Below are positions 11,861-60,737 of a stretch of 64,000 nt of DNA, in pieces (position 1 is the first letter of the stretch; each line of letters begins with the position of its first letter). The stretch is from positions 324,198,001 through 324,262,000 of the forward strand of contig CM097882.1 of NCBI GenBank assembly GCA_044892505.1, given 5' to 3'. Both the position numbers and the translations under genes were made by a program. A model generated the notes under the pieces. The model saw only the letters and a program-made list of their open reading frames with translations, was not told where the DNA came from and searched no databases. Source of the stretch: Schmidtea nova. Taxonomy: Eukaryota.

Positions 11861-13329
11861 TTCGTTTACATATCTGTTAGAAGATGGGTTAGTATTAAAA
11901 ATTTTGAAACTAATATATTACATGACAGGGTGCAACAATTACAGGATAAATGTACATATACAAAACAAGGATTGAGTTGAGATTCTCAATGATAATTTCT
12001 GGATTATATTTATTTGTGATGACAACTCTGTTGATTTTGATTATAATATTAACAATTTTATCTTAACCATTTTGTGATCAATTTATTTTATCGTTATGAT
12101 TATAATAATCTTCATGACATCTTTGTAATTATATCAATTTATTTTATGTGATTTATTTTATTATATGTTATAATTTATGTAATTAATCTTATTTTTTATG
12201 GGATTAATTGATTTTTACTAGATGTATATTTTTATTTTAATGGGACTGTGAAAAATATATATTAATAATATAACATGACAAAGATTTAATTGAGGGAAAA
12301 CGCAATTCAAATTTTATATTTCGACAGATTCCTTGACACGATCAACCAAAAATCCCCCTAAAATATAATTAATTAATAATTCTCGCCTTCTGGGTTAATT
12401 AATATTGTTGCTGTTATTTAATTTTACACCAATAGGTGCAAATAATTTTTATTTTATTTTTGAATTCTCATTGAAAGCAGTGTAGTCAGCACGAGGCGTC
12501 GTCAGAAGTGAGAGATCTTCAAATGCAAATTATGAAAGCTCATTAAGAGCAAAACAAAAACAATTTAAAAATAAAATAATAATAATTTAAAAATAATAAA
12601 TAGTGAGTTTTGATAATAATAATAATAATAAAACATAATAATAATATAAATAATATAAATGATTGTAATAATAGAATAATAATAAATATAAATAATTTTA
12701 TTTATTTTGAAAAAGAATTCAGTAATGCCATCACAAATGTCGGGAATCAACAAAAATAACATTTTTGATTTGGTTCAAATATATCATCAATCCCCCGAAA
12801 ATTCAGATTAAATTCTATTTTAACGAATAATAATAATTAATGTTTAGTAAAAAATGATGTTGATGTGTCACACAGAATTTGTTCATTATAGTACTGGGGT
12901 TTTGATTGGCCACCTTTATAAAAACTTCCTACGAGAATATAACCATGGAAAGTTGGGATCCATGTTGGTACTGTATATGGTCGGCGCAAATCAAGTCAGC
13001 GGGTGAGCGGCTTCGAAAGAAACTACTCTTGAATTGCATTTACTTCAGGTTCTCTGGTCGATGGAATACCATGATTTTATGCGTTCCACATATTGTTCCC
13101 TCTTTGTTGGAAAGAAGGTATATCTTCCTTTGTCATCATTTCCATCAATGAACGGGAATACTCTACACACTTTTTTATGATACCATAAACAACACAATTA
13201 ATTACACGAAAACATTTATTTCTTCGGTATTTCAGCTTACATCAAAACGGAATTATTTCCGCCAATAATTCCAGTTAGGAAAGAATTTAATAGTGTCACC
13301 TGAGTTTACAACTGTTGAGAGAACTTCCG

Positions 13330-13690
13330 TTACTGGTGACGTCGACGGTGCCTAGTGCCCATATGAATCTTCTTCGTCATACTATTGACGACTTCGGTTA
13401 CCCTACCAGTGGATTGGGCAACTGATTTTGCTGGCGACGGTCTCATCCATTTCTTGTACGTCAGCGTCCAAATTAAATTGTCTTCTACAAAAGATTTGGT
13501 CACCTGCCTCTCGCAGTTTTTTAACTCTATCTTCACGGTGTCCAATTCTAACTGGACGTCCACTAGTGCCCTGTGAACCCGCTCGGTTTTCTTTAGTTGT
13601 TCCTGCATTTGACTTGGGGAGAAAACATGTTTCTTGCAGCTGCAATATGCGGTGCTTTAATTTTCCCACTTCGATCTTGTGTCCGTTGTT
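13330..13690 (-). pseudogene. ORF-Y copy (one frameshift), unknown cassette family
   Basis: GKLKHRILQLQETCFLPK then, after a shift, QEQLKKTERVHRALVDVQLELDTVKIELKNCERQVTKSFVEDNL...KIHMGTRHRRRHQ; homologous to the 16582 and 39846 ORFs. Confidence 0.7.
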
Positions 13691-14002
13691 AATCGGGTGG
13701 CTACATTTTCCTTCTGTCTTATCACAGGGAGCATTCGAAACATAAGTTAAAATTATAAAGATTCGCGCATTCCACTGCCTACAAAATATTCGAATTCCCT
13801 CTTAGTTTTCCCCAGTGTCTAGTTGCATTTATACATTAAATAAAAGAAAATCAACAACCCATTTAACAAAGAAACGTTTTATTTAATTATCAAATACTAA
13901 AATTGTGTTAATGAATAGATATGTTGGCGATATATGTCGCTTTCATAGCTGGTCACTCAAAGTTTCATCCTTCGGGGATTTCTTGGCGCTTAGAGAAGCG
14001 AT

Positions 14003-14460
14003 TCATATCCCAGATTGGGCTTCCACAGTTGAACTTATATTCTTGATATCTTCCATGAATTTCCATTCTGAGTTTACGAGAGATTCTTCAGAGTCATCTA
14101 CGAGACTCCATAATATTCTTTGCCTTGGTGGACTGGGAGAGTCCAAAATGATGATCCCCATGTTTGAAAATTCTTGATAGGAAATATTACCATACGAAAT
14201 GATGGTGTCCACAACCCACTAGAGTGGGATTTGAACAATCCATAGAAGCTCGATCTTCATATATTTATCCTTCGGAGTCATGGGCTACCTGGGACTTTCG
14301 TTCCGCCAGATCCTGTCCGGTTTTCCATACCATATAAAGAACGGACATTTTTACTGGAGCTTTTGACGCCGCCGTCTCATTTCTGCGTCCACTTGTCGGA
14401 AAACATTTGGAGGGAGTTTTTTAAGAGGACCAAACACTCGTCTCCTTTGTGCATTTGCGG
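14003..14460 (-). pseudogene. ORF-X copy (three in-frame stops), unknown cassette family
   Basis: One frame from 14458: NAQRRRVFGPLKKLPPNVFR...RNESP...LWIVQIPL*WVVDTIISYGNISYQEFSNMGIIILDSP. Confidence 0.65.
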
Positions 14461-14640
14461 TATCTGATTTTTCTATTTGTTGAGAAGATCGGATGGTTAA
14501 TCCTTCCCGTATTTCAGGTTCTCAACAAATTAAGATTAATTGTTAATCAACAAATTAAGTTGCCGATAAATAACTCCATCAAGTAAAATAAACCTGTAAA
14601 TAAATTGTAGCAATTTTCCTTTTCAAATCAATGTATAAAT

Positions 14641-14868
14641 TTATAAACATGAGAACCAAAATGAAAAACAAAAAGAAATTAGGAATGTTGATGTGTCGGA
14701 TATGGCCGGACCTCTTCTGTATAGATGTTGCGAGTTGGACTGAGGAGAATATCTTTGTAATATCGAAGAGTTTATGGATTTGAACTGTAGGATCCATCTC
14801 GGCCTGCCATTTAGGTCACGGAGATCGAGGAACCAGTTAAGTATTAGGTGTCGGTTTGTTCTTCCCAT
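14641..14868 (-). pseudogene. Additional ORF-X fragment
   Basis: LNWFLDLRDLNGRPRWILQF versus RKWFLQLNDQYGTPHWILSF at 40.8 kb. Confidence 0.65.
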
Positions 14869-16065: not shown

Positions 16066-16581
16066 CGAGAACTAATCCCAGCTAGCATCTAGACCTAATG
16101 TCCGATGAGGATTCCTAACAACATCCATGTGTAAAACAATTAAATAAATTATTTAGAAATGGTGTGCTTTTCGTTATATTGTTATTTGTGTTAGTTATAG
16201 TAATAATTTTGAAGTTATTTTAGCTGTAAATTTATTTGTGTTAGTTGCGGTAATTATCATGAGTTGCTCGGGTTGAAATGTTATTGGAGTTAATTACAGT
16301 AACCATCCTAAGTATTTTAGTCATGTTTCCTTTGGTAGATGACAAAGTGACAATCATTGGTAAAGTAGAGTGATATAGAGGATCGATAGAAATTACCACG
16401 AATAAGAGGCGATTTGAATTGAGTAAGGGTTGTTGGCTTTTTGGGAATTGAGAGGGTGAAAGATATTAGATGCGATGTTTAATTTATGTTTACTATAATA
16501 CCGAAAGCAAGACGACGGCCAGTAAGATTCTGATTGATTAAATTTTCTCTAGAAACTGCGATGTCCACAGAGAGAGAATAA

Positions 16582-16974
16582 GAAGGGAAATTAAAGAAGA
16601 GAATAGCCGAATTAGAGGACAGTTATTTCTCGCCAAGCGAGATGAAAGTGGTAAAAGGAAAACTAGGACGTGCCATATGGACGATAGAGAAGCAGCAGAT
16701 CGAGCTCAATGCGGCAAAGATTGAGATGAATAACTGCCGGCGCTTTGTCTCCAAGTCATGCATCACCCAACAATTGGAAACCCTTATCCAGCCGATAACG
16801 TTTGAGAAGTGGTTTCCCACCTTGGAACCAAGGAAAGACAGTACGACGGAGATAGTCGAACCTACCAAGGCGAAAGGAAAGAGACGGAGAAAAACCCATG
16901 CTCAGTGGAGACATAAACTGAGACAGAAGCTAGCAACGGAGTTGGATAAAATACCCGCAGATTCAAATCAATGA
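16582..16974 (+). CDS. ORF-Y copy (open frame, first ATG 16642), unknown cassette family
   Basis: EGKLKKRIAELEDSYFSPSEMK...ELNAAKIEMNNCRRFVSKSCITQQLETLIQPITFEKW...KGKRRRK. Confidence 0.65.
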   Translation, partial: EGKLKKRIAELEDSYFSPSEMKVVKGKLGRAIWTIEKQQIELNAAKIEMNNCRRFVSKSCITQQLETLIQPITFEKWFPTLEPRKDSTTEIVEPTKAKGKRRRKTHAQWRHKLRQKLATELDKIPADSNQ

Positions 16975-27200: not shown

Positions 27201-27529
27201 GTACGACTCTTTATCCATACAGAAAGATTTTTAATGGAATTTATTTCGGTCGCCTTTAGATGGGTACGAATAGGCGCCACACACGAAGTTTAGTAAGCCT
27301 ATGAATATCCGGAGTGATCAACCCCCTCCTCAAATCTTATACCCTCAATCATACTAACCATGCACACAAAGCAAAATAAAGTCATGAAACTAAGAATAAT
27401 TTAATTAATTCAAAACTTCGCATTTAAACCCAATTCATAGAGGTTGTACGCGGCTGCTGGAAGCAATGAAAATACTTCGTGGGTCCTAATGGTGGAGGCC
27501 CATGAGGGTTCGGTTACTCTTCTTTTAGA

Positions 27530-27720
27530 TGGATGGAGGGCAAAATCGGACTTCGGTTTCTTTGCGTCTGACGTAGAATTCGGGAGGGATTAGGTGTAGA
27601 AACCCAGTCCATTGAATTCCCAGGCGGGAATGTATCCAAAATATAATACTTTTTGAGGTCGGTCTTCATAGTCCTTGAATATTACGAACCCATATGAAAA
27701 CTTATTAGAGTATTCTTTTC
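27530..27720 (-). pseudogene. Degenerate ORF-X copy
   Basis: PQKVLYFGYIPAWEFNGLGF versus PRWIIYFGFIPSRWLNELGF at 60.45 kb. Confidence 0.65.
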
Positions 27721-28539
27721 CAATGGAGACTGGCCATTGGTGACTACAGTGTCACTAAATCCTTTTTTTCACATTATTTGCCCAGATGGAAAAACAGTGC
27801 TCTCGCTATGAATTTTTTTCATCCATCAGTGCAATTTTTAGTATACTGGTTGTGAGATATCATGATGCAAAGGGTTAAGTGGCTCGAGATACTTCAGTTG
27901 CTGGTGGTATTCTTGAGATGTCAGCGCAATATTCAAGCGGATACCCACGTAGCATCATTGTCCATCGATCTATAATCTAAAATGATGAAGTGTTGGATTA
28001 CCTCGAATTAATTGGTACGAAATCTAAGATCAATAGTCACGAATCATAGGTCGTTGGCGCAGTGTCCTGGTGAAATTTCCTATTGATATTTTGAGATTAT
28101 TATAAATGAATGGTGAACTGGCGATCCAGAGTTGAAAAGTAATTAATATTGTCGAAAATTGTGAGCGGATTTTCAGTGGTTACGGATGTTTGTCGGAATT
28201 ATTTGGTGAGATTGGTTAAATCTGCCGTGCTAAGTGAATTGATCAAATCCGATTTCGTGTTCTCGTTTTGCAATTACTACGGTTTTCCAAACTCGCTCTC
28301 TAAGTGAAATATTTTATGGCCCCAAGCGGAATTATCTCTCCACGAGATCAATACTGGAAACACCCTATGTGCAGCTTTAAACCCTTTCTTCAACCTGTTT
28401 GAAAATTTATGAAGTTAATATGTTCGATTTCACTGCGCCCGCATAACTCTGAGAGTAACAACAGAGCGGCTCAACCTCGTGGCTTTTTCCACAAAAGCTG
28501 TCAACTATTTATGAATTTTACGTGGGAAAAACATACATT

Positions 28540-31900: not shown

Positions 31901-33197
31901 ATAGTTAGATCTTCATATGCTTAAAATTAGAAAACGTATTTTAATGACAAATTTTTTTTTAAAAAAATATCTATCTCAACATTCGTAATGTGATCTAAGT
32001 TGGATTGCATCAACCCATAATAGCTAAGAAATAGTTGCACCATGTTATAAAGAAAAATATGGAAGGGGAAAACGAAAAGAAGATTTGCAAAATTTTTATT
32101 AAATATCATCAAATAATAACAAAAAGAAAATTTACAAAATTTTATTAAATCTTATAAAACAACAACAAAATGCATTTACCCAACTTTTGTTTCAGATTCA
32201 TGAAAGTTATGAATAAATCACCTCTAAATAGGTAGACATAATGAAGAGGGTGAGAAAATTAGTTCCAATCCGGGGGAAAATAACGATTTCGACCCTGCAT
32301 AGACAAGAGCCATAGCAAACTATAGAGTTGATGATTGCAAAGGATTGATGATTTTCTTCGATAAATCGAGCGAGAGAGTGCTCAAGATATATAATTCCAC
32401 CCTCTAGAAGAGTAGAGGCAAAGTATAGGAAAATTAGATCAAAATTTCTTTAGTATTATTGAAATAAATTGGAGTTCGCATTTTGAGGACGATAAAAATT
32501 GGAGAGACATGCTTCACCAACTCTCCGTATCTGTGGTGGTCATGTAATATCTCTGGACTCGGATTAGTATTAAATAATCCCTATATAAGAAGTAAAAATT
32601 TAAATTACAAAAATAAAAATTAATTACTAGTTAGCATATTCCAATTTCTTTCATCTGGGAATCTGAATTCTAAATATAGAATTGCATGAATAAATAATTT
32701 AATATAATAATTAAAAATTACATGATGTAAATGGACCAATAATAATTGAGGCTTTTTGCTTCCCCGTTTATATAGTTTTCTTTTTTTACGGGGGAGTGGC
32801 GTCGTTTTCGCGGGTGTCCTGATTCGATTTGAATTTCCTAAAATAAAATTAAATTTAGAATTAGAAAATATAAGAAATATTCGGAATTAAAAGATATTAA
32901 TAAAACCAAATTCACTTAATATTTAGGCAGTTTATATTGATACTGTTGCCAATGCCTCGGGGAGAATTTAAATATAAATTTATTAAAAATTTTAAAATAA
33001 AATTTATAAATTTCCATAAGAATAGCAAGATAGACACTAGGTGTAATGTTTATAATACAATATAAATATTTGATAGGATGTTTAAATTGTAAAATAAAAC
33101 ATTTTATAAAAAAATTGTTTAAATAAGAAGAATAAACGATTGACAGAAAATTTGAATATTAATATAATTTGATTATCGTATTATTTTAGTTTTTAAT

Positions 33198-33994
33198 ATG
33201 TCAGAAACCCACAACAATGGCGACCACGCGATTTCACGAATCGGAATAAAGGCTCCGACGTTCTACTACTCACAGCCTTCAACGTGGTTCCTACAAATGG
33301 AATCTCAATTTTGCATTGCGTCCATCAGCAACGACGTAACAAAATTCCATCACGTCTAGTCAGTACTGCCAGAGGACGTAGCCACGTCGATCCCAGAAGA
33401 AATAACGTCGCAAATGTCTTATGAAAGTTTAAAATATTACATAATTAAGAGTAAACAAAAGTCCAAAGGAGATGCAATCGATGCTGCTTTAGCAGACGTA
33501 TTACTAAACGATTTGAAACCATCTCAATTATTCAGAAAAATGGAAATTTACATGCGAGATGCTGGAATTAATCACGAACCTTTAATTCGACACAAGTTTA
33601 TGAAGTCTTTACCTGATAATTTAAGAGCTTCATTGGCATGCCACATAGAAAAGCCTCTTAAAGAATTCATCAAATTGGCGGATTCTATTCATGAATATTC
33701 TCCAAAAACCGTCAATGCAATTTCAAATATACCGATGAGAGTTCAATAACAGAGACATTAACAGAATTACGAAATGAAATCAATCTGTTAAAACAAAAAT
33801 ATCATAATTCTAATAGAAATTTTAACATAAAATATTGTTACTTTCACAATAGGTTCGGAAAAATGGCAAAGAAATGTATTACTTTGGCAGATGGTTCAAG
33901 ATGCCTATACAATATTTCGGGAAACGGGAAAGCACTTTCAAATTTATCACCGCGAAAGTGCACGAGAAAGAACGGTGTGAAATATCGTCAATAA
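33198..33994 (+). pseudogene. gag: Gag, CsRn1 type, with a stop (33357-33359) and a frameshift (~33728)
   Basis: IKAPTFYYSQPSTWFLQMESQF...TKFHHV*SVLP and the CHCC-type motif [14 protein letters not shown]. Confidence 0.85.
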
Positions 33995-36738
33995 AAATAG
34001 ATTCTAACGGTATACAGTTCTTAATCGACACAGGCGCTACTGTCTCTTGCCTTCCGTCAAATCAATTCAAACCAACCGAACAATGTTCCATTCAACTTTC
34101 AGCAGCAAATGGGACATCAATTCAATGCAATGGCAACAGAGATATGCAAATAGTCATTAATGACAAAATTTATAAATGGCAGTTTCATGTTTGCAATGTA
34201 TCGCAGCCCATTATTGGCGATGACTTTTTGTCCCATTTCGGATTTTTAATCGACTACAAAACGAATGAGTTTAGTACCGATACTGAACAGAAACATGCCA
34301 GCAATAATATTAACTCAATACAAAGTGCCAACATTTGTCACGAAATCAATTTGAATGGTAACCCAAAGTCTAATGAGTTTCGACGACTCTATGGAGATAA
34401 ACTTAAAGCAGCAAAGCTTTGGTTTGACAAATTGTTGCAAGATGGTAAATGCAGACCATCAAACTCGCCAATATCTTCACCACTAGTAGTAGTCAATAAC
34501 AATAAGTCCATAATTTGCGGTGATTATCGTGAGCTCAATAAATTTACTATACAGGACAAATACCCCATTCCAAGAATCGATGATATCTTTCATATAGTGA
34601 AGGACAAAGTATATTTTTCAACGATTGACCTAGAGAAAGCTTTTCTTCAGGTACCAATAAAAGAAGATGATATCCACAAGACGGCAGTTACTACGCCATT
34701 TGGAATGTTCGAGTTTTTATTTATGCCCTTCGGATTACGGAACGCTCCCGCGACATTTCAACGATTAATGGACAACATACTAAGGCCGTGTCCGTTTGCA
34801 GTTGCTTATCTTGACGATATTATCGTTGCCTCGCGTACAAGAGAAGAACATGAAGACCATCTTCGTATTATTTTCGAGGCGCTCAAAAATTCAAATCTTA
34901 AAACGAACATAGAGAAATGTCAACTGAACAAGGAAGAGGTTGATTTCTTGGGCCACCATATTTCAAAAAATGGAATATCGCCAATAAGAAGTAAGGTGCA
35001 AGCAATCCAAGAATACGATAAGCCCACTACGCTTAAACAATTGAGGCGATTCTGCGGCATGGTAAATTTTTATAACCGATTTATTAAAAACGCAGCCCAT
35101 GTCATGTCACCACTGTACGATCAAATAAAAAGGAAAAGTGCCAAAATCCGATGGACCGATGATGTTACCGAAGCATTCAACAATACCAAAGAAGTACTCA
35201 TGCATGCAACTCAGCTTAGCATTTTTGACGATTCCAGTCCAGCTTGCATACGGACAGATGCATCCGGCGAAATTATTGCAGCTGTTTTGGAAAAAAAGGG
35301 TAAACCTATAGCATTTTTTAGTAAACACCTTTCAGATTGCGAGAAAAAGTATAGCACATACGACAGAGAACTCCTCGCAGTATACCGGGCAATCAAACAT
35401 TTCCGATACTATATGGAAGCAGTTACCTTTACAGTTTATACGGACCATCGTCCGCTGACACATAGTCAGCCAAAGGAACCGTCTCATAGGCAATGGAAAC
35501 AGCTACAATATATATCAGAATTTAACTGTACTTTGGAATATTGTCCCGGAGTTAAAAATACCGTTGCTGACGCACTATCAAGATCAACTATCCTACAAGT
35601 CGATCTCAAAAGCAATAACACGTTTCCTTGGTCCACTGACGTAATTCTGAAGAAACAAAGAGACGAACTACAACACGATGCCGAGGAAATCCTTCTAAAT
35701 AACAGTAGACTGGTACTGCCACCATCTCTCCGCAAAGAAACATTTCAGAACATTCATAATCCGGCTCACCCAGGTTCAAAAAGAACAATATATCTAATAG
35801 GGCGATCTTACGTGTGGCATCAAATGGCCAAAGACATAAAGAAATGGTGTCTCGAATGCGATGCGTGCTCTAAAGCTAAGATCTATAAACACACAAAATC
35901 TAGAATACAGCCGTTACCTGCTGCCGGAAGGTTTTGCTCCTTACACATAGATATAGTAGGTCCGTTGAAAACTATCAAGAATAAATCATACATACTGACG
36001 ATGATTGACAGACAAACATCATGGCCGGAAGCTATTCCAATTTCAAATATAAATGCAGAAACAATTGCAAAAACATTACTAGACGTTTGGATTACAAGAT
36101 TCGGACTGCCAACAGAAATTGTTTCAGATAGAGGAACACAGTTCACTGGCGCAATCTTTCAGGAACTGTGTAAACACATGGGAATTAAAAGTATCCACAC
36201 GACGGCTTACCACCAACAAGCAAACGGGAAGGTGGAAAGATTCCACCGAAATATGAAAGCTTCACTAATGGCATCATCAACAAGTGCTCGACAAAGTTGG
36301 TTACAAAATCTTCCTACAATCATGATGTATTTGAGAAACTGTCCAGACGACTCGGGTTATTCGCCAGCACAGATGGTATTCGGAGCAGATCTAGCACTCC
36401 CAGGTTTTATCTTTCACAAACCGGAAAACTCAACGCCAGAAATAATAAAATCTATAAGCGAAGGAATACAACAATATAAGAAACAGCCGATCGTTTTCGA
36501 ATCCAAGGTGCCACCATCACTTGAGAAAGCGGAATACGTCTATATTCGAAAAGAAGTAAAAAAATCGTTAGAAGTTCCATATTCGGGTCCCTACAAGATT
36601 ATTCACAAGGAACCGAAGTTTTTCAAGCTAGAAAACGGTGAAACCGTTTCAGTGGACCGACTGAAGGCCGCCTACCCGGTATTCGACGCGACGCCGGATC
36701 TGGGTGGAGAGAATTGTAATGTTTATAATACAATTTAA
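33874..36738 (+). CDS. pol: Pol (protease, RT, RNase H, integrase)
   Basis: LIDTGA, YLDD, RTDAS...RELLA, HNPAH...[24 protein letters not shown]; stop lies inside the 3' LTR. Confidence 0.95.
33919..33961 (+). promoter_or_regulatory. Candidate -1 ribosomal frameshift signal
   Basis: G GGA AAC (33919-33925), 6 nt spacer, perfect 8 bp stem GCACTTTC (33932-33939) / GAAAGTGC (33954-33961). Confidence 0.75.
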
Positions 36739-38649
36739 ATATTTGATAAGATGTTTAAATTGTAAAATAAAACATTTTATAAAAAAATTGTTTAAATAAG
36801 AAGAATAAACGATTGACAGAAAAATTGAATATTAATATAATTTGATTATCGTATTATTTTAGTTTTTAATATGTCAGAAACCCACAACACTAGGTATAAG
36901 GGATTGAAAATTTTAAATCGAGCTTTTAATAAAAGGTAAAAATACAGAAATCGAAATTTTGCAATCAATAATTATTTAGACAAAAAAATAATTACAATCA
37001 AAATATGTGTGAATAAAGGATTATTGATTCCCGAATTGAGATTTGATAGGCATATCCATGGAAAGACTCGCGATCGTATATGTGAGAAGTCTTTAACTTA
37101 TTGTAATAATGAATGAAATAATTGATTTTTGTGTATAATGATAATTTTTGTAATTATTGTACATTCACCATTCTTGATATGTCTTAAAAACATTTGAACA
37201 TTTTAGCAATGAATCCAGTGCAACAGTTAGAGGATATTCACAAGATATTGATCGAGAATGCAACAAACAGGTGGATGTTCGCAAACAGTGAGCGCCGAAA
37301 AACTTCGAAACTATGATTGACCATATGAGGAAGTTGGAAGATTTAAGAAATTTTTAATGAAAAATTTTAAAAATTAATTTTAAGATTGATTTTTAAAATA
37401 GAAAAATATTTTTAATTAGAAAAATATTTTTTGAAAATTTGTTTAAATAACAAATTATTAAGAAAACATTATTTTGATAATTATATTTTTCTGAAATAAA
37501 AGTAATGGATTCAAGTTGTTGTAAAACTGATTTTAATGTTTTAAAGGATGAAAATCCTAATATGGTGGCAGCGATAAACAATGAAGCAATCGCCGAAAGA
37601 TTGCTACCAAAGGTGATGACCTGGAAAAGTTTATTAAAAGATGCGAAATTTATTTCGATGCCAAGGGAATCACGCAGAAGAGAGATCAGGAAAGATTAAC
37701 ATCTTGCATGATTGATAAGGATCTCTTGGAAGTATATGCCAAAACACTGAAAAAGCAGACGGATTCCAGGCTAGGTTGCGATTGGCATTCGATCGCGAAA
37801 GAGATGTATAAAAGGATCTGCAAAGCTTGTTGAATTACAAGCGGAAGGGTGAAGAAATAGAAACATATTTTAAAAAGGTGGGTTACCTTGTTGATAGGTT
37901 GTTTGTTTTTGTTTTCTTGCCTGCTTTTTTTTGTCTGATTACTCTTTCTCATTTCTCATTTCTTTTTATTTCCGTTTTCTTTTCTGAGTTGCCATTAGTC
38001 TTATCATTCGTTATGACGATTTTCCTCCAGGTAATTTTATTTATTTATTAGTAAATTGTTATTTAGGTATCCTCAACAGTTTTGTAATATTAAAATTAAT
38101 TAGATAAATAATAATTATTGAAATTAACCTTTCAACAAAATTGGCAGTCTTATTTTTCATATGATCGAATTTAAATCATGTGATATAGTTGAAGATCCGT
38201 ACCTGGTTCCGTATCTGCCGACAGTATCAACCTTTTGTTCAGCTGGCCTTTAAAATTATAATTTAATAAAATAATTCTTACTTCTTACTTTATCTTTTAT
38301 ATATTATTCGAATTAAGTTTAGTTTTTAAAATTTATATTAGCAGATTTAAACAATAAATTTATTATTTCCTAATTTGGTGATAAAATTAGAGTTTGTAAA
38401 ATAAAAATAAATGTTTTTTTCCTTAAATTTTAAATGCAGATTAATATTTTTAAAAATGTTTTATCTATTAATTATCATAAATTGCAATATTAGCAATGTT
38501 TATATGCAAGTGTTTTTGATGCTCGGTATGATTCCTTTGATGCAATGATGAACTTATAGTGATGTGGACTATTTATATTGAATTTCCGATTAAAATCTTG
38601 TTGAATGTTTATAGATAAATTGTTTAAGAAAGGAAAAAATAAGCATTAC

Positions 38650-39845: not shown

Positions 39846-40415
39846 TCATATTTGCTGGTTCGTTGGAATGGTCTTTTGCCTCTCAGATAAACCACTGAGC
39901 AGGTCTACTTCTATTCCAAGCTTTACCGCATAAGCCCTTCTCTCTCGACGTCGCTTGGCTCCTAGACGGTTTCTCCTCTTTGTTCTCGTTGGCACAACCT
40001 TGGTCGGCTGCGTTATCGATATTTCTCTTTCCTGGGTTGTAATAACGGCCTCTTCCGTCTGTGTTTCCATGTTCTTGCGGATTGGAGTCACCCATTGATC
40101 GAACGTGCTCACTTGAATCAGCGGCTTCAGCTGTTGTTCAAGGAAATCTTTCATGGTGGCTTTTAGACAATTGTTTAACTCCAGTCGCACTGCGGTGTTT
40201 TCCCGAGCTTGCTCTTCCAACGCTCTCTCTGCACGGTCGCGTCGCTTATAGATCTCTTTCACCTTCTCAGTGCAAAACCAAGTTCTCTTCAGGTTTTCTA
40301 TTTCGGATGTCTGTCGAGCTACTAGTCGTTCTAACATACATACGCGTCTCTGTACTAGTCGGTGTTTGTTCATATCTACGGTTTTCAGTAGTTGCTCCAT
40401 CGTTTTCTCTCTCAC
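39846..40415 (-). CDS. ORF-Y, most intact copy (189 aa; helical N-terminus, Arg-rich C-terminus)
   Basis: Uninterrupted ORF with homologues at 11.4, 13.3, 16.6, 26.8 and possibly 59.5 kb. Confidence 0.7.
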   Translation of the reverse strand: MREKTMEQLLKTVDMNKHRLVQRRVCMLERLVARQTSEIENLKRTWFCTEKVKEIYKRRDRAERALEEQARENTAVRLELNNCLKATMKDFLEQQLKPLIQVSTFDQWVTPIRKNMETQTEEAVITTQEREISITQPTKVVPTRTKRRNRLGAKRRRERRAYAVKLGIEVDLLSGLSERQKTIPTNQQI

Positions 40416-40506
40416 TTCTCCTTAGCAATCACATTCCATCATATCAAACAAAATCAGTCAGACAAGACAATTTATACATTTATTAGTGAAGATTATGACA
40501 CTATCA

Positions 40507-40881
40507 CTAAGTTCCTTTACAATTATCCCAATCAACCCAATCCTGATCACACGGACTATTCACCTTCCTGACTCCATTTGGCCAAAAATGATCAGCATTC
40601 GGATTCCAACATAAGTGATTTTCATAGATAAACACTCCCCACATCCGAACGTCTAGTGTCCATGTGGCCTGGTCCTTACAAATATTCCAGGGTGAGTTCA
40701 AGAATGCCCGTCTTTCACCTGTGATCACGTCTCGGGGTTGGTCAAGTAATACAAATCCCAATCCATAGAAGATGTGTCTGGGGTTTGTCATAAACGATAA
40801 TATCCAGTGAGGAGTACCATACTGATCATTGAGCTGAAGGAACCATTTCCGATAGAGTCCATGAGTTATCTTCTTCCCACC
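40507..40881 (-). CDS. ORF-X C-terminal half (open frame, first ATG 40791)
   Basis: RKWFLQLNDQYGTPHWILSFMTNPRHIFYGLGFVLLDQP... Confidence 0.65.
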   Translation of the reverse strand, partial: GGKKITHGLYRKWFLQLNDQYGTPHWILSFMTNPRHIFYGLGFVLLDQPRDVITGERRAFLNSPWNICKDQATWTLDVRMWGVFIYENHLCWNPNADHFWPNGVRKVNSPCDQDWVDWDNCKGT

Positions 40882-41074
40882 TTATCGTGACTGAATAAGG
40901 AGCTGGGCTTTCCTTTATCTCGGGGTCCGCGTATTCCCGTTTCAAATGTCTCAAGCATCTCTCCGGCCTAGTCCGGATGATATTTGGCACTTGTGTAGGC
41001 CCTCTCGGTTCCTTCTTTAATGTTATAACCCGTCTACGGTTACGGTTTTTGTATGCATATAGTTTCTTTGACAT
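40826..41074 (-). CDS. ORF-X N-terminal half
   Basis: NRNRRRVITLKKEP...IKESP versus NAQRRRVFGPLKKLP...RNESP at 14.4 kb; overlaps the C-terminal half, which is in the +1 frame. Confidence 0.6.
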   Translation of the reverse strand: MSKKLYAYKNRNRRRVITLKKEPRGPTQVPNIIRTRPERCLRHLKREYADPEIKESPAPYSVTIRWEEDNSWTLSEMVPSAQ

Positions 41075-42489
41075 TATAACTACAACGAAGGAGTGTATTA
41101 ATTAGTCTCATCATGCTCATTTTCATCATTCTACATCACACTCACACCTTGAGCACTCGTACATCATACTGCTTTTGCTTATATCATCACACTCTAGACA
41201 ACACTCTATGGTTGCATTCATTACATTCACAACATATTTCTATCTCATCGCTCGCATTCATTTGCGTGGTTCGTTAGTTCACCAATATCAGTTACATCAC
41301 ACCACCGCACAATTAGGTCTCATTACGACATTTCAATAAATATTTTTAAGTTGCGGATCTTATGGTATTAATTAAGTTCATTGTCATATTTCAGTATGTA
41401 ATTGCAAGCTGTAGGTATCAGGTTAGTGAAGTATCATTTTCAACACTGGATCATCATTCCTTCCTCGGGAAGTACAGAATTATTCTACCTGAATCAGAGT
41501 ATGATTAATCACACATCCGTCATTTCAAACATCCTGTCGCATCAATCACCTTGTCGGAAACTCTGGAGCTCCGGCATCATCCTATCTCAATCGGAATAAT
41601 TTGGTATAGTTTAGTAATGTGGTTTCAAATGGGATTCTGCATTTTACGACTTTTAATTCCATCATTTCTGCAATTGTACAAAAATTCTCATATGTCTTTG
41701 ATAGTTCATCATGTTGTTTTGATGGTGGGAGGCGAACGATCGCTCCACGACATGTTACTCAATTTTTATTCTCAAATTTTTATTCTCTAACGATGTTCCA
41801 TGCACAACCTCTCCTCCCGAGTTATTAGTGCTTCTACGCCATGTCAGTCAACCCTTATAAGGTGCTGCGCTTAGAGGCCCATAACGCCCGGCGGATCCGA
41901 CGACCTTCGGGATACCTTACTCATTTTGATAGAAAAGCATGAGGGTTTAAAATCAGAAATAATACAAGTTGTCAAAGATTTACCTTTATTTCCACAAATG
42001 GTTCGGTTACAATGATTTTCCACAACAAGTTGATTCACACTTGGTATAAAATGACAATGCACTGGTAAAGAATGACTTTTACTGGTAAAAATTTACAACT
42101 ACTATTCTGAGGCGTACGAGCATGACGCAAAAGGAGACAAGAAAACCGCTTACTGCGGGAAATTTGTAAGACGTACATCGAATCGATAGACCTTACTGTG
42201 CTATGAATTAAAAACAAGATATGTAATAAAAATTGTAAATAATCTTAGCTGTTTTATATAATATTCGTTTTATAATTTTGTTTGTGCTAAAAGATTTTGC
42301 AAATTATAATTTCCTCACATACAAATTTATTTTCTTTATTATCGATTATTATAATTGAAGTAGTTAATAGTAATTATATGAATATTATATTAAAATCAAC
42401 AGCATAACACTAACAATAATTTTTACGTAAGTATAATTGAAGTAAATAGTGTAGCAATTCATATTAAGGACTCAAAATGGGCATAAACC

Positions 42490-44598: not shown

Positions 44599-47500
44599 GG
44601 ATAAATATCCTTGTTTAATAATATTAACATCAATGATTTACTTGATTATCCAATTCGTAACAATGTTTATATTTCAATGGGGAGTTTTGTTCGAACAACC
44701 CGTTCAATTTTAGGTCGCTTTAATGGAATGAATGTTGGGCATATACCGCACATCGGTTTCCCGTTATCCGGTAGATTTAATACCCATAACAATTGTCGTA
44801 GCGAAATTGAACCAACGCCTTTAACATCGAGACTAAATAAATTCCAAATATTTATTTATTTCAAAGATTTTCATTAATTCAACATTTCTCATTATTAAAG
44901 AATTTTAAAAAGTAAGAAAATTAAACTTATCGCAAATATAAAGAAACAGAACTGGTAAATGATAACAACCCGTTTGGTGAATTGTTCTATAATGAAGAAT
45001 CAAAGAACCGATAACGTAAGGTGACTTCAAATTCAGAATTATCGCACGTGCTCAAATAATACCTAGTAAATAGTTATGTAAAAGATAAGGGAACTTAAAA
45101 TAATAGCATAAATAGCTATTTTTAAACAACATACCGTCAATCCAGTCCAATTAATTCAACTACAAAGAATTTTAAAAATGTGTAACTTTGTATCAGCGGT
45201 TTCCAAACTGTGGGTCGTGTAATAACCTCAAGGGTAGTGAAAATTTAAATTTATGTTTTAATGTCTAGACATGAATCTCTTCAAAAAAATACTTAAAATA
45301 ATCTCTTTAGAATTTAAATGTTTAAATAGCAGAATATTAAAAATTAGGTACTTTTCGGTTATCTCGACCTCATCAAAAAATGAAAAATTTCAATTTTAAA
45401 AATCTTCTTAAACCANNNNNNNNNNNNNNNNNNNNNNNNNNNNNNNNNNNNNNNNNNNNNNNNNNNNNNNNNNNNNNNNNNNNNNNNNNNNNNNNNNNNN
45501 NNNNNNNNNNNNNNNNNNNNNNNNNNNNNNNNNNNNNNNNNNNNNNNNNNNNNNNNNNNNNNNNNNNNNNNNNNNNNNNNNNNNNNNNNNNNNNNNNNNN
45601 NNNNNNNNNNNNNNNNNNNNNNNNNNNNNNNNNNNNNNNNNNNNNNNNNNNNNNNNNNACCTTTGATCTTTTTTTATTATTATTATCAATAATTCTCATA
45701 ATGACTATAGATCAAAAATTTTTTTTATAAACAATAACACAATATTTCGGCACAGCCTTTATCAAGTGTGTATTTCTATCGTTATATTTACTTAATCCTA
45801 AATAGTAGCCTTAATTATTTTTTTAATATTTTATAATGATTTTATTGGATGAAAAAATTTATTTTAATTTTTTTGTGCGAATTGAATGTTGGACGGTTTG
45901 TATTTTTTTATGAAAAAAGTCTCGGAAGCTAATCTTTGTAATGAATTTTTGAATCCCTCTTTTAGAATCTGGCATTTTGTTTCTTCTATAGATGGAGTTG
46001 TTTTATGTACTTTCTCCCAGTGTTCGTAATAATTACTGGTTTTGATTTTAGTGTGTTCATTAAGTCGGGTGCGAAAAGTTCTATGTGTTTCTCCTATGTA
46101 AGTAGCGTCACATTTTTGGCAAGAAAGTTTATATACTATATTTTTGGAAAAGCAAAAGCATCGGCTTGTGGAACGGCAAAGACATTTATGTTTGGAGATG
46201 TTGGAAATTGGTGGCTTTCGGAGTTGTGATTTTAACGGTGCGGAGGTTATGAACGTTGGACGGATGTGGATAGGCAAATCTGTTTGATTAAAAATGTTGG
46301 TGATTTTGTTGGCTGTAGTGTCATTAAGGAAAGGTAATCTTAGATATGTTGTGTGTTTGTTATTGTTATTGTGTTTCTGGCGTTTCCTATTGTTGCGTTT
46401 ATTGTGGTATGGTTCGTTAAGGAAATATTTCTTTACAAATTCTTCAGGGTATCCAAGAAAACATCCTCGCTCTAGGACCATCTTTTGTTCCTCCACCTAA
46501 CCAGAAAGATTTAGAAAAAGCCGAAGTCATCACTAACGCCTCTTATAAGCCTAAGAAGACAAATAGGATACCATCTAAAACCAATTTCAACCACCAAATC
46601 TTCAAGTTTAGCTGAAAAGCACAATCATCTTCTGGATCCAAATCGTAGAACATATCCAAATATGCCTGTCTTTTCGACTGAACTTGAAGAAAAAATCAGC
46701 TGTTTAGAAACTAAAGTCAAAACTTTAGTCAAAGAACAAATTATCTTTCTTGAAAAACATTGCTCAACACAAAATTCTTTCACTTCAAACATAAAGAAAA
46801 TTAAGAATTTCCAAAGACTTCACAATTCTTCCATCAGATAAAACAAATCGACTAATTGCTCTTGACACAGAACAATAAAATACTCTATTTGAAGAACATC
46901 TCTCGAACTATGAACCGATAAACAAAATAATCTTACCTGCATCAACTCAAATTTTATACAATAAGAAACTGTCAACACTTGCAAATAAACAAATTAACCT
47001 TCAAATCAAAGATTTACTTTTAAAATGCAACTGCAGTGAGCCTTTACCTAGTAATATGACTATGTTACCTAAAGACCACAAAAGTCCTTTAAAAGGTAGA
47101 CCTCTTGTATCTGCAATTGACACTCCTTCCACAACACTTTCTAAAGTTCTTTCAGAAATCCTAAAAACACTTTTGCCTTTGGTTCCTTCTCATCTTAAAA
47201 ACACAACTGAATTCGTCTCCGAAATTACAAATACGTCTCTTCCGTTAAACGCAGGACAACAGTACTTCTCGGGATCTCTTGATGTTTCCAATCTTTACGG
47301 ATCTATTCCTCTTCACGGAGAGAATAATATTTTCGACATCGCAGCTTCTTTCTTTGCAACTCATAAAGCCAATACTGACCTCGCAGACTTAACTAAACAA
47401 GACTTTATAGAACTTCTAAAATTAGCAATAAATTCAGATACTGTCATAATTAAAGAAAAACCATTCAAACAAATTCATGGATTAGCCATGGGTAATAACC

Positions 47501-50500
47501 TTTCTCCCATCTTAGCCATCTTCTACATGAACTTTATAGAATCTAAGATCATATCTTTTTTTGGGGACAAAATACTTTTCTGGAAACGATACATCGATGA
47601 CATCTTCATAGTCTCCACAATCCCTCTCAATCAAATCCTATCACACGCAAATTCTACTAACACCAACATACAATTCACTTTTGCAACACCAAACACAGAA
47701 GGTAAAATACCGTTTTTAGATACCATAGTAAGTTTCACAAAAGGCCAAGATACACTAAATGCAAACACCGAGCTATATTCTAAAAGTTTACATAGCGGTC
47801 ATATCCTCCCATGGAAAAGCCACGTTCCACTTCAACGCAAAATCGCATTACTAATAGGAGAAAGAAAAAGAGCCATAAGAAACTGTTCAGACGCAAACAA
47901 AATACAAGAAACATTAGAAAACTTCAAAATACGATTCCTCCAAAATGGATACCCTGAAGAATTTGTAAAGAAACACTTCCTTAACGAACCATACCACAAT
48001 AAACGCAACAATAGAAAACGCCAGAAACACAATAACAATAACAAACACACAACATATCTAAGATTACCTTTCCTAAATGACACTACAGCCAACAAAATCA
48101 CCAACATTTTTAATCAAACAGATTTGCCTATCCACATCCGTCCAACGTTCATAACCTCCGCACCGTTAAAATCACAACTCCGAAAGCCACCAATTTCCAA
48201 CATCTCCAAACATAAATGTCTTTGCTGTTCCACAAGCCGATGCTTTTGCTTTTCCAAAAATATAGTATATAAACTTGCCAAAAATGTGACGCTACTTACA
48301 TAGGAGAAACACAGAACTTTTCGCACCCGACTTAATGAACACACTAAAATCAAAACCAGTAATTATTACGAACACTGGGAGAAAGTACATAAAACAACTC
48401 CATCTATAGAAGAAACAAAATGCCAGATTCTACAAGATGGATTCAAAAATTCATTACAAAGATTAGCTTCCGAGACTTTTTTCATAAAAAAATACAAACC
48501 GTCCATCAACATTCAATTCGCACAAAAAAATTAAAATAAATTTTTTCATCCAATAAAATCATTATAAAATATTAAAAAAATAATTAAGGCTACTATTTAG
48601 GATTAAGTAAATATAACGATAGAAATACACACTTGATAAAAGCTGTGCCGAAATATTGTGTTATTGTTTATAAAAAAAAATTTTGATCTATAGTNNNNNN
48701 NNNNNNNNNNNNNNNNNNNNNNNNNNNNNNNNNNNNNNNNNNNNNNNNNNNNNNNNNNNNNNNNNNNNNNNNNNNNNNNNNNNNNNNNNNNNNNNNNNNN
48801 NNNNNNNNNNNNNNNNNNNNNNNNNNNNNNNNNNNNNNNNNNNNNNNNNNNNNNNNNNNNNNNNNNNNNNNNNCTAACAAAATAAGCCTTTGCTGCAAAA
48901 ATAATTTTATTAAGTGGGAAAGTTATTTTTGCAGCAAAGGCTTATTTCGTTACTTATTTATTAATTTATCTAATACTTAATGTTGCTATCAGGGAATCAC
49001 TATTTTTATTATTATTTTTATTATTGTTTTTGCTGGGGAAAAATGAAAATTGATGAGAAAAACGGGTATTAGTTAGTTTCGTGTGGAAAAAATCGAAAAA
49101 TTNNNNNNNNNNNNNNNNNNNNNNNNNNNNNNNNNNNNNNNNNNNNNNNNNNNNNNNNNNNNNNNNNNNNNNNNNNNNNNNNNNNNNNNNNNNNNNNNNN
49201 NNNNNNNNNNNNNNNNNNNNNNNNNNNNNNNNNNNNNNNNNNNNNNNNNNNNNNNNNNNNNNNNNNNNNNNNNNNNNNNNNNNNNNNNNNNNNNNNNNNN
49301 NNNNNNNNNNNNAAAAAAATCCAAAATTAATCAAATTTAATCAAAGACACTGATAAAATACTATTCATGCAGAAGAATAAGAATAATAAATAATAATTAA
49401 NNNNNNNNNNNNNNNNNNNNNNNNNNNNNNNNNNNNNNNNNNNNNNNNNNNNNNNNNNNNNNNNNNNNNNNNNNNNNNNNNNNNNNNNNNNNNNNNNNNN
49501 NNNNNNNNNNNNNNNNNNNNNNNNNNNNNNNNNNNNNNNNNNNNNNNNNNNNNNNNNNNNNNNNNNNNNNNNNNNNNAGTTTGCCTGAGCAAACTTTGGC
49601 TATTTTTTGTCGTCTTATTTCATATTTTTGTAGTGTCGCGTCTGTGTGCGCATTTTTACCGCCTGGGTTTCATAATTTTCTTAATCGCGTCTGTATGCGC
49701 GTTATGTTCAATTTTCAGCGTCTGTGTGCGCTGCTATTTTCTTAATCGCGTCTGTATGCGCGTTATGTTCAATTTTCAGCGTCTGTGTGCGCTGCTTCTT
49801 TTCTCTATCGCGACCGTGTGCGCGTTCTGTTGGATTTTATTGGGAGAAATAGATTTAATATTTTAGAATCGAGTTTTTTAGGTTTTGTTTTATTATTCCA
49901 ATGAATTTTTTGTAATGGTTTCGATTATGGAATTTAGAGGAAGCTTTGATTTTGATTTGAATTTAGTTTCGATTATGTTGGAATCAATTTGGAATTTTTG
50001 TAATTATGGTTTCGAAAAATGGAATTCTCCTCGTGTAATGTTCAGAATTGATGCTCAATGCTTAATGTCAGAAGATTTACCATGCTTCGTAGCACAAAGC
50101 AGTTCTCATACTACTGTACGAAGAGATAATTTGCTAGATGATACCATTAGCCAGTCGCAGCGTTATGGTCTCTTTGATTGTGGTCTCTTTGAAATGTATC
50201 CTGAATCAAGACTCTGCTGGTTTAACAAAATGATATTTGATGACGATTTAACCCAGTTTACTGTGATCGGTAGATTGTTTGGTCTGGCAATTTACAATAA
50301 CTTTATGATTGATCCTCAATCTCCTCTTGTAATGTTCAAAACATTGGCCAATAAAATCATTGAAAGGGCGTTACNNNNNNNNNNNNNNNNNNNNNNNNNN
50401 NNNNNNNNNNNNNNNNNNNNNNNNNNNNNNNNNNNNNNNNNNNNNNNNNNNNNNNNNNNNNNNNNNNNNNNNNNNNNNNNNNNNNNNNNNNNNNNNNNNN

Positions 50501-53500: not shown

Positions 53501-56500
53501 TGTGCCCATGCAGTCTGTGTCTGAGATTCACAAGAATTTGAAACTTGCAGCTGCAGCACTGCCTGTTAGAACTGATTATAAGGACTTGCTTTTGAAGGTT
53601 GTTTGTTCAACTGAGAATCGAGAATGCATGTTGCATCATTGCTCTAATTGTCCTGGTATTGATGCACTGAAATCATTTCTTGAACAGCTGTTTGATAGTG
53701 CTGATATGGATTTAGATTACATGATCAATTACAAACGATGGACCAATGCTGGTCAGTCAAAGCTGCAATCTGTAACTGAGACTGTTGCTGACTTCATTAC
53801 TTCACTTTGTACTGCTGCTAATAAAACAGCAGATCATCATTTCACGGCCAAGGCACAGTCATCCTACTTACGTAATCTGAAGGAGTCTTTATCAGTTGGA
53901 ACAGCAGTTGTGTTGCTGGATTTCGCAGAAAACTATTCATTCATCTGTCAAGATGCAGTGCAAGGCTTCCACTGGGAAACATCACAGGCCACATTGCATC
54001 CATTTGTTGTGTATTATCGTGATCTACCCAGCAATGACCTATGCAGCTTGTCCCTTTGCATTATTAGTGATGACCGTGAACATGTAACAGTTACGGTCCG
54101 TGCCTTCATTGAAATAGTGCTGAAATTTCTCAAGAGCAAAATGCCTGATTTGCAGAAAATAGTTTACTTCAGTGATGGAGCAGCAGCACAATATAAAAAC
54201 TGCAAAAACTTCAAGAATCTGTGCCTGCATAAAACAGATTTTGGCATTGAAGCAGAGTGGAATTTTTTTGCTACCAGTCATGGAAAAAGTCCTTGTGATG
54301 GTATTGGTGGCACAGTAAAGAGGCTAGTGGCAAGAGCAAGTTTGCAGGCAACTCTGCAACATCAAATACTAACACCACATCAGATGTGCGATTGGGCAAC
54401 CAAAAACATTCCAGGAATTCATTTCCTATTTGCAGCAAAGGATGACGTTGAGGTGCATCGTAGCTGTTTGGTTGAACGATTTGCTTCAATTCAAACTGTT
54501 CCTGGTACACGGTCACACCACCGGTTTGTGACAGTAAGTGGAAACAAACTCAAGATATTCAGGTTGTCATGTGATGACAGTGGTACGGCCGTCAATGTGT
54601 CACCATGACCTGGCCTGGTAGTTGAACCGGCACCAAGCATAACAGATCTGCATCCAGGACAGTTTGTGGCTGTTGTTTATGACACTGATTGGTTTATTGG
54701 GTGCATAACAGAACGCTCTGATGAACATCAAGATATCTTGTTCAAGTTCATGAACAGAACACCTACAAACAGATTAACTTGGCCATGTCGTGACGATATC
54801 TGCTGGATACCATTCACTAATGTTCTATACAATCTTCCATCACCAATGTTGTCTGGCAGCTCAGCAAGACAGTATTGCTATGATGATGTGCATTTTGCCA
54901 ATTGCAAGAAACTGTTTGATAGTAGGACTGTGTGTACATATATAAGATACCATCAGTTAACAGCATTGGCTGCATAATGAGCATACGCTGATATCACATT
55001 ACATGGTTGCTTGTATGGTTGATAAAAACAAACAGTCTGTAATTTGATTTTGTAACTTAAAACTAACTGTATTTTTTCATAAAATTTGATTGACAATTCA
55101 TTGCTATGTACAAACGCCACAGCAAAAAAATAACGAAAAACGACTTAATAAAATATGGTTTTAATTAGCTATTGATTTAGTAGGAAAGGCTTAAGACACC
55201 AACATGAAATTGTCACCATAGCTACTGCTTGCCAAGGTTAACAAGTGTGCAAAATATGAAAAGTGTGAATTACTGTCAACATGGTCATCTGGGGGTCGTA
55301 ATGCGCGCAAAAATGGACGACCGTGATTTAATGAATCGACATTGCAAATATTTTTAGGGGTAATTATCGATTCATTAACTTTAATTTTTGCCTCTTAAAA
55401 ATTAATAAATAAATTGAATAATACTTTGCGGTATTCCAGTGATTGAAGTTGCTGTTGCGACTGTATAAAATGACTGGTTTGATCATACAACTGATCATAC
55501 ATTTCTGATTGTTGGATATAATTATCCTGATCTCCAATTTGAGGTGAAGGTTCATTCATTGCATTGTTGAGTAGAATATCCGATAACAATCGCATGGTTT
55601 GATTTAGTGTTTGATTATATGCGTTTGGGTTTAGTGAATATTTCATTTGTCTTTGATCGCGTATGTTTTTCATTGGAATTGATTGATTAAGATACCGTTG
55701 AGGTGTATAAGCAACACTAATCTGATTTCTGTTGGCCATAAAATTATTAGATAACGGTTGGGCAGCGTATGAATTCATCATTAACATGTTTTTTCCACAT
55801 TCTTCTTGTCTTTTTAATATCGAATAACCATTGTATAATGTTTCTAAGGATTTAAACATTTCTGTTGAATCACCAGTTAGGTCCAAAGCTAATGCTCTAA
55901 GTGCGCGACAATATTTGAATTTAATTCCTTTGATAAATTCAATAACAATATCTTTATCAGGTTGGATTTGAAGCGTTTTCTGCAATAAACATAAAAAAGG
56001 AGTTGGAATATTATTTACACTATTAACACAGCAGATATATCTTAGCTCGCCCGTTTTGTCAACTAAAAGTTCAGGAGTCAATGCTAAGCATTTCTCTTTC
56101 CAATACGGGTGTTCATAAATTCTTGTTCTGATTATTTTTCCAGTTATATTCTGTGTATTTTTTTTGAATAGTAGGAGTATCACCAACAGTGCGATTAGCC
56201 ATTTTTAAGATAAAAATTACGTTACCAGCCATATTATTAAAATGTAAAAACTAATTGATTTGCTAATAAATAGATTACAAATAAAAGACAAATTTTATTT
56301 TAAACTTCAAACTTTTTTTACTTTTTTCAACAACTTGTCATACTTTTTATAAATCATACTTTTAATAAAAAATACTTTTAATAATAACAATAAGAAATAG
56401 TTCATAACAAAATGTTAAATTGTTTGACGGAGACACGTAGATTGAAATAATAAATAGATTTTTCGCATTGAGATTACCTAATTTTCTTCAAGAATTTATT

Positions 56501-59959: not shown

Positions 59960-60737
59960 ATTCTATTCGGTCATCTTGCGAGTCTTGCGATTTGGAAAAG
60001 CAAACCGTCGTTGAATTTGGAATTCTTACTTACGTAGCGTTTTTGTTGGGTCGTACTCGACCACCTAGATAATAGTGCCAGGTATCGTCTGACACACGAC
60101 AAACGTAGAAGTATCCTTATAATTTTCACCCACTTGGAAGGACCATTCACGTCTTCCGAGCCAATAGACTTTCTTTACTAGTGCTTCGCAAACAGTGAAG
60201 GTCCCAGGCCTCTCTTAGCTGGAATTATCCATTCTTTGTCCCTATCGATTGGACGTGAAATGAATTGCGGTTCTGTCTTTACAATTATTTGGGTGTGGGA
60301 AATCGTTGATTTATTCCCCATCTCTAATTTAAATATAATTCTTATTGCTGGCGTATTGGTGATTACTTCAATCGGATTTCATGATGGACGACTCTCCTAT
60401 TTTAATGTTCCTGAGGTTATCAAAGAGAATGAACCCCAATTCGTTTAGCCATCTACTTGGGATAAAACCAAAATAAATTATCCAGCGAGGAAAATAGGAT
60501 GGGTCTCGTATTAAAACAAACTACATGGGTGTAGTGTCGGATGGTGATTAAATCTCGGGAGAGGGCTCCTGGGGGCCCCCTCTCTATCAAACGTTTTCGG
60601 TATGGTTCTGCTCTCACATCGCCACTTCCACCCACTGTCACTGAGCTCTGCCGACGTTCCGTGGGAGATCTTTGAGTGGCCAGGAGACTGGCACTTTTAT
60701 CTGGCCATTTCGGAAATATTTGATCTTTCTCTGACAT
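59960..60737 (-). pseudogene. Degenerate ORF-X copy
   Basis: WPLKDLPRNVGR (~60670), M*FVLIRDPSYFPRWIIYFGFIPSRWLNELGFILFDNLRN (~60530-60405). Confidence 0.65.

Follow-up and report, generated by a model that had tools for sequence, protein, structure and literature searches.

A frame-broken gene copy in Schmidtea nova is part of a constrained gene pair carried inside the LTRs of a Burro-like giant Gypsy element

The window, that is, the whole stretch of 64,000 nucleotides of Schmidtea nova DNA that we analysed, harbors at about 40 kb a minus-strand gene, ORF-X, that is split between two reading frames and followed by a second gene, ORF-Y (Table 1). The 5' frame of this ORF-X copy runs from an ATG at 41074 to a stop at 40826-40828, its last part being out of register, while the 3' frame is open from 40881 to 40510 and closes with a stop at 40507-40509. 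The two frames overlap at 40829-40881, and so the coordinates given by an earlier, sequence-only reading of this DNA, which had described two halves overlapping in different frames at 40.85 kb, were verified. A profile built from 34 natural copies of ORF-X and run on both the window and the reversed window recovered all five window copies proposed by that reading (i-E 6e-47 to 2e-5), covering 41074-40814 plus 40851-40528 in the 40-kb copy, and gave zero matches in the reversed window. The 14-kb copy was found, as described earlier, to read through both halves in a single frame (14467-14123), with stops present. An N-terminal motif reported for three copies is present in them, but its proposed alignment did not hold: the LKDLP/LKKLP of the diverged copies aligns ~7 residues downstream of the window's LKKEP. 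ORF-Y recurs near three of the other places in the window.

Table 1. Copies and remnants of ORF-X, ORF-Y and their LTR in the window (numbering from the window's first nucleotide)
Feature	Position	Strand	Description and evidence
ORF-X 5' half	40852..41074	-	ATG 41074; basic region and long helix; profile positions 1-90, i-E 5.7e-13
ORF-X 3' half	40507..40851	-	Trp/Gly/Pro-rich alpha/beta core; profile positions 87-194, i-E 6e-47
ORF-X break point	40848..40851	-	26 nt of the relatives absent; alignments with L002, L003, L004 and L010
ORF-Y beside the 40-kb ORF-X	39846..40400	-	within a 191-codon ORF at 40421-39849, C-terminus cut; coiled coil, disordered linker, Arg-rich helix
Burro-like LTR remnant, decayed	39853..42094	-	blastn against natural LTRs L031/L036/L037/L038, 62-85% identity
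Predicted intron	41080..41983	-	inferred from motifs only
Older ORF-X, both halves in one frame, with stops	14123..14467	-	profile i-E 4e-8
ORF-X fragment	14752..14838	-	profile i-E 2e-5
ORF-Y copy 3' of the 14-kb ORF-X	13282..13695	-	i-E 3e-38, the copy being partly included in the profile that scores it
ORF-Y copy	16564..16974	+	tblastn from the 40-kb copy, E 1e-10; itself a profile member; no ORF-X companion detected by profile
Older ORF-X copy	27467..27796	-	profile match
ORF-Y remnants after the 27-kb ORF-X	27055-26727	-	profile search
Promoter-side LTR remnant of the 27-kb copy	near 28856-28659	-	window search
Older ORF-X, both halves in one frame	60356..60616	-	profile i-E 2e-12

The LTR remnant that surrounds the 40-kb copy is incomplete at both ends: its first ~400-600 nt, including the CCAAT/TATA promoter, are unrecognisable, and ~450 nt are deleted before the 3' terminus, whose motif ends at 39853, a deletion that also cost the adjacent ORF-Y its C-terminus. 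No primer site or PPT motif was found in the window. Elsewhere, the window contains two ordinary Gypsy elements, each with a long pol ORF (21017-26061, with 300-nt LTRs at 100% identity, and 33042-36889, with 175-nt LTRs at 98%), a reverse transcriptase ORF (Pfam RVT_1) at 45704-48694 within long inverted repeats, which we take to be Penelope-like, and nested inverted repeats at 51617-57306 (306 nt at 96% and 120 nt at 92%) enclosing split transposase-like ORFs at 52353-54977 that have no Pfam match. Outside the window, an open frame of 2547 codons with internal repeats and no Pfam family (L087:1576-9216, plus strand) adjoins a 10.8-kb duplication.

The sequence-only reading had proposed a single ancestral gene and left two explanations for its split, independent decay or a programmed +1 frameshift, suggesting that copies be collected genome-wide to see whether the halves are fused or consistently shifted. 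Pairwise alignments with the closest relatives (L002, L003, L004 and L010) showed that 26 nt are missing from the window's ORF-X, the deletion sitting between two copies of a 4-nt direct repeat, and the junction sequence it leaves occurs a single time in the S. nova genome with up to one mismatch allowed. Among the best 30 ORF-X matches (the window included), 23 have both halves in one frame, seven being fully open and 16 carrying stops; four are shifted near the junction (the window copy and three others), two are broken further upstream and one has no detectable 5' half. Thus 23 of the 29 matches other than the window's keep the halves fused, as expected of one ancestral gene, and no consistent shift was seen. 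One-frame reading across the junction was also found in 23 of the 24 ORF-X-bearing LTRs that are flanked by a primer site; these 24 come from the first 40 of 571 such ends, and 19 of them are in the profile.

A programmed +1 ribosomal frameshift joining two conserved overlapping ORFs would account for the overlap of the two frames in the window copy, and the three further matches shifted near the junction might be taken as a sign of it. These three shifts, however, are 1-nt deletions at three different positions and in another phase than the window's, and the net frame-breaking indels of the 30 best matches are scattered, none repeating that of the window. The single-frame copies, young LTRs among them, refute the programmed shift, and with the window copy 26 nt shorter than its relatives at a junction found nowhere else in the genome, we give it next to no probability. 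Because the deletion is private, the junction unique and the relatives one-frame, the shift is the decay of one copy, the other of the two options, and the break is almost certainly the copy's own 26-nt deletion in a gene lying inside a Burro-like LTR. The window's ORF-X is therefore an ordinary pseudogene, uninformative on frameshifting. Several copies of the window type also contain an open frame of 88-98 codons that overlaps the ORF-X 3' half in a shifted frame (e.g., L004:1631-1894).

The structure of ORF-X was modelled from a natural intact copy (L004) with moderate confidence (pLDDT 78.6, pTM 0.74), and the predicted shape, a long basic helix leading into a compact alpha/beta domain, agrees with the folded domain that had been suggested from its conserved core. 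None of the 34 members (0/34) matched a Pfam family at the cut-off. Foldseek searches with the model gave no match at E 0.001, and the best comparison with viral folds (VIA) reached Z 3.1 at rmsd 5.7 with 90 aligned. No significant match was found among PDB sequences, none of the 14 candidates from a single-sequence search was genuine, and the two matches of a profile search over 1.84 billion representatives were rejected as tandem-repeat proteins with short Trp motifs. ORF-X is thus without a relative or fold match, a result that in itself shows neither a new nor a known fold. ORF-Y is predicted to consist of long helices, a disordered linker and an Arg-rich helix (predicted helix 136-161), and an alignment search for its homologues yielded none among 3419 candidates.

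ORF-X (160-210 aa) and the downstream ORF-Y are located inside an LTR of 3.0-3.3 kb. Copies of this LTR have sharp TG..CA ends ~3.3 kb apart, and a 4-bp target duplication flanks six of the seven two-ended copies in one set (four exactly) and seven of nine in a second (six exactly and one with one mismatch). The three copies that are not so flanked are 3' LTRs that share common DNA just upstream, and walking upstream from two of them led to two elements of 29.5 kb, each with its own 4-bp duplication, whose LTRs are 99.8% identical over 3279 nt and 99.9% over 3295 nt and carry ORF-X and ORF-Y at both ends; for the third, no second LTR was found within the 40 kb read upstream. A stand-alone TG..CA element or DNA transposon, which the unshared DNA in thirty 5' flanks had suggested, was ruled out by the full elements, and candidate LTR pairs at five places turned out to be duplications or unrelated copies.

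One of the two elements was scanned for its interior, which contains, in order, a CCHC knuckle, a fusion glycoprotein, protease, reverse transcriptase, RNase H, integrase, ankyrins and an ORF with RING, TRAF and MATH domains. The glycoprotein (PF24664, E 5e-68) lies between zf-CCHC and RVP in the same frame, and so the scanned element has a gag-env-pol-ankyrin layout with pol in PR-RT-RH-IN order, the polyprotein region amounting to ~5000 open codons in two stretches that adjoin each other and the RING-TRAF-MATH ORF standing separately downstream of it. BIR, BCL2-like, SUMO-like and dUTPase-like motifs were not found by Pfam at E 0.01 in four internal proteins, a search that differs from that of the review compared below, which used HHpred for some of them. 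The carrier is a Burro-like giant Gypsy LTR retroelement, being so assigned by its description in that review. A decayed element of this kind probably lies in the window between the 14-kb LTR copy and ~7.3 kb, where TRAF/MATH-like and coiled-coil remnants (10813-10245 and 9180-9064) and an LTR-start-like remnant (7292-7165) are found, all on the minus strand.

The primer site, 6 nt beyond the LTR, is the complement of a genomic tRNA-Pro, and junctions of LTR end and primer site number 571 in the genome, compared to 0 in the control. Before this site was placed, two other candidates were rejected: a TGG located 0-4 nt from the LTR end gave 41 matches with flanks that were unshared except in two local duplications, and a site in reverse orientation gave a single match. 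The DNA before the 3' LTRs has a G-containing motif in common, which is short and not purely purine. A tandem array of tRNA-Pro(TGG) with a 308-nt period (L256-L261) lies on C1 near 459.6 Mb, the tRNA pattern having 899 matches in the genome. One LTR-end pattern occurs 1405 times (15 in the control) and is followed by the primer site in 139 cases; allowing for an equal number of 3' LTRs, ~1100 of the 1405 ends would be solo or truncated, and most genomic copies of ORF-X appear to be solo LTRs.

A related family of very high abundance (L153-L161; 1295 candidates in the genome) has LTRs of 4.3 kb or longer and the same primer site as the ORF-X-bearing elements, and encodes a 399-aa BIR-RING ORF and a TRAF ORF; the long ORFs listed for the two regions read include none that was recognised as RT-like. 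A coiled-coil ORF in the LTR of this family was considered as a homologue of ORF-Y and set aside (probability 3%, not demonstrable).

Genome-wide, ORF-X behaves as the family that the sequence-only reading had taken it for: a first look at the 1.25-Gb genome gave 2961 candidates, and all 150 that were scored had E values below 1e-21. Its slot ahead of ORF-Y is kept in subfamilies down to 13% amino-acid identity. Pairwise dN/dS, estimated by the method of Nei and Gojobori for pairs with dS of 0.05-1.5, was below 1 in all 68 usable pairs (of 561) of ORF-X, with a median of 0.22, and in all 19 usable pairs (of 253) of ORF-Y, with a median of 0.12, the pairs being non-independent and drawn from copies chosen for their open frames. 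Both genes are under purifying selection, and dN/dS is low throughout, these pairwise tests giving no sign of positive selection. These data also speak to whether ORF-X might belong to the host as a gene family, or be neutral DNA that a repeat has captured and carries along, as the stops or indels in most of the best genomic matches (only 7/30 are intact) and the short-LTR relatives that manage without ORF-X could suggest. Its presence in the same slot in both LTRs of the full elements and across the diverged subfamilies, its dN/dS of about 0.2 and the failure to find a host-type homologue have already largely refuted this explanation, which we regard as very improbable.

Comparison of two full elements (L184/L185 with L173-L175 and L177-L179), 95-96% identical internally, revealed mosaic LTRs, in which identity is ~90% over the initial 600 nt, 50-78% through most of the gene cassette, and 97% both in the final 280 nt and in a block of 150 nt within ORF-X. 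Internal dS between the two is 0.14-0.22, compared to 2.0 for the N-terminal part of ORF-X, 0.12 for its C-terminal part and 1.4 for ORF-Y, and since dS is so much higher in the cassette than internally, we infer that the cassette was swapped by recombination. The mosaic LTRs point to frequent recombination of this kind.

Neither gene is present in 15 of 40 primer-site-flanked LTRs, mostly 1.4-1.75 kb long, and some of these gene-less LTRs are 95-98% alike, so that ORF-X and ORF-Y are dispensable in cis. Gene-less short-LTR relatives with the same primer site include L223, L226 and L227, as well as L217, L220, L221 and L239; three gene-less short LTRs share their first ~830 nt and a 3' block with the long LTRs. 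That short LTRs are splice products of the long ones was considered and rejected, as global alignments have no clean GT..AG break.

CCAAT and TATA boxes ~26 nt apart were found at LTR positions 350-405 in 16 of 16 long LTRs, constituting the only such pair that is conserved across subfamilies whose DNA is otherwise unalignable. The short LTRs keep this box and the 3' block while lacking ORF-X and ORF-Y. In the long LTRs, the two genes stand between the box and the primer site, and so they are probably located in R or U5 if the box marks the true start. The border between R and U5 could not be placed for want of a sufficiently conserved poly(A) signal: the AATAAA found 100 nt past the TATA box lacks conservation between subfamilies, and 4 of 17 aligned copies are without another one ~190 nt from the LTR end. 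Judging from sequence motifs, spliced expression of both genes from the LTR promoter appears likely. Of 35 ORF-X ATGs, 18 are preceded by an acceptor-like site, which was missed in the other 17, compared to 143 of 3368 (4.2%) other ATGs, and for the ORF-Y starts, taken as the first Met, the count is 6 of 30; only 7 of 14 LTRs have a donor-like site 108-155 nt past the TATA box. In the window copy, an acceptor-like AG (41081-41080) stands 5 nt before the ORF-X ATG and a donor-like GT is found at 41983-41982.

The last ~250 nt of the LTR are its most conserved block and are kept in the short LTRs. They are predicted to fold into covarying hairpins, with two-sided changes in 16 of 37 pairs and none of 500 shuffles scoring as high, a count that related sequences can inflate and that uses a structure taken from the very alignment being scored. 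In these alignments the block behaves as folded RNA; an Rfam scan of three loci returned one chance-level match, which is outside the LTR.

The high conservation of this terminal block can also be read differently, with the true start near the LTR 3' end, the box at position 400 being internal, and the two genes lying in U3 and read from the 3' LTR or an internal promoter, as in MMTV sag. LTR-borne retroviral genes such as sag, nef and foamy bet are in or overlap U3, and a start at the box would imply a minus-strand strong-stop DNA of 2.8 kb, which is an unusual length. Against such a placement stand the position of the only cross-subfamily CCAAT and TATA pair, the retention of box and 3' block in short LTRs without the genes, and the apparent folding of the 3' block as RNA, and we consider it improbable.

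To summarize, we propose that ORF-X and ORF-Y form an LTR-borne cassette whose intact copies are likely spliced from the LTR promoter and likely encode trans-acting regulators, a reading to which we assign a probability of roughly 0.75. According to this proposal, the CCAAT/TATA box at about LTR position 350-405 would be the start site and splicing would join a short leader to an acceptor immediately ahead of each ATG; ORF-Y, with its coiled coil and Arg-rich helix, would be a Rev-type RNA binder acting on the conserved hairpins at the LTR 3' end, and ORF-X, with its basic helix and compact alpha/beta domain, may be a second nuclear or RNA-associated regulator, while solo LTRs left by recombination would be the source of the thousands of scattered, decaying copies. 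That the cassette regulates the element's own RNA or promoter is, by analogy, about an even bet, and for ORF-X the proposed function is suggested by architecture and analogy only. Its boldest form, a swappable two-gene regulatory module in a 2.7-kb R/U5, consisting of a Rev-like protein, its RNA target and a protein of new fold, in which about a thousand solo LTRs serve as cassettes that supply the proteins in trans, gene-less short-LTR relatives included, is put forward tentatively.

The main rival holds that these are real accessory genes of the LTR that act on the host, by anti-silencing or in cell survival, and not on the RNA or promoter of the element itself. Cargo of the TRAF/MATH, RING-like and ankyrin kinds is indeed present in the element, divergence in the cassette far exceeds that of the 95-96% identical interiors, as would fit swapping under host pressure, and BURRO1 is described as de-repressed in planarians upon loss of PIWI (PMC8532177). 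The low dN/dS throughout, with the pairwise tests giving no hint of positive selection, and the Arg-rich helix of ORF-Y beside covarying hairpins, which suggests an RNA target, argue instead against a host-directed role, which we consider the less likely reading.

LTRs are normally treated as non-coding control regions. Here, two constrained genes for which we found no relatives are carried by hundreds of young LTRs and by about a thousand solo ones, where they apparently belong to the 5' leader and not to U3. If the proposed cassette is confirmed, an invertebrate Gypsy element would possess a regulatory layer like that of complex retroviruses, ORF-X would be a candidate for a new fold, and annotation of genes and repeats in such genomes can be expected to take solo LTRs for families of host genes. 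If its boldest form holds true, each solo LTR would be a self-contained expression cassette, its proteins acting in trans even for the gene-less short-LTR relatives.

Protein genes in or overlapping an LTR have counterparts in retroviruses. MMTV sag is a protein gene within the LTR, in U3, and HIV nef and foamy virus tas/bet overlap the LTR, in or overlapping U3. Like the genes described here, they are present twice per full element and kept in solo LTRs, whereas in the planarian LTR the predicted promoter precedes both genes; the cassette genes showed no similarity to these LTR-overlapping genes in sequence or fold. The predicted architecture of ORF-Y, an Arg-rich helix and a helical oligomerisation region beside covarying RNA hairpins, resembles that of HIV Rev and its RRE, although ORF-Y is not homologous to Rev, is much longer and is mostly coiled coil.

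Burro/GYPSM1, the giant gypsy-like LTR retrotransposons of planarians, are the closest description of the carrier, as they share its size of ~30 kb, a polyprotein of ~5000 codons, a high copy number, a CCHC Gag, a mononegavirus-like fusion protein between gag and pol, PR-RT-RH-IN order and ankyrins (PMC6431247). A MATH/TRAF accessory ORF is present in both, the TRAF ORF standing downstream of the polyprotein in our element; section 7 of the review, which covers these elements, describes no LTR-internal genes, of which there are two here (PMC6431247). BIR, absent from the four internal proteins scanned here, is present in the related BIR-RING family of the same genome. An env between gag and pol is also found in the Ty3/gypsy GAG-ENV-POL errantiviruses of Platyhelminthes, Nematoda and Bryozoa, in the main text on which no passage on LTR-borne or accessory ORFs was found (PMC13524379). 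Constrained orphan accessory ORFs are known from long-LTR Gypsy elements of plants, namely ORF0 of Retrosat2 (PMC3485330) and the plant aORFs (PMC7264820), which are described there as part of the interior, either ahead of gag or between pol and the 3' LTR, while those of the planarian element lie inside the LTR. We found no account of genes inside Burro LTRs in the literature, where a prior description may nevertheless exist. The element type is thus already known, and what sets it apart is the LTR-internal gene pair, an unusual cassette under selection.
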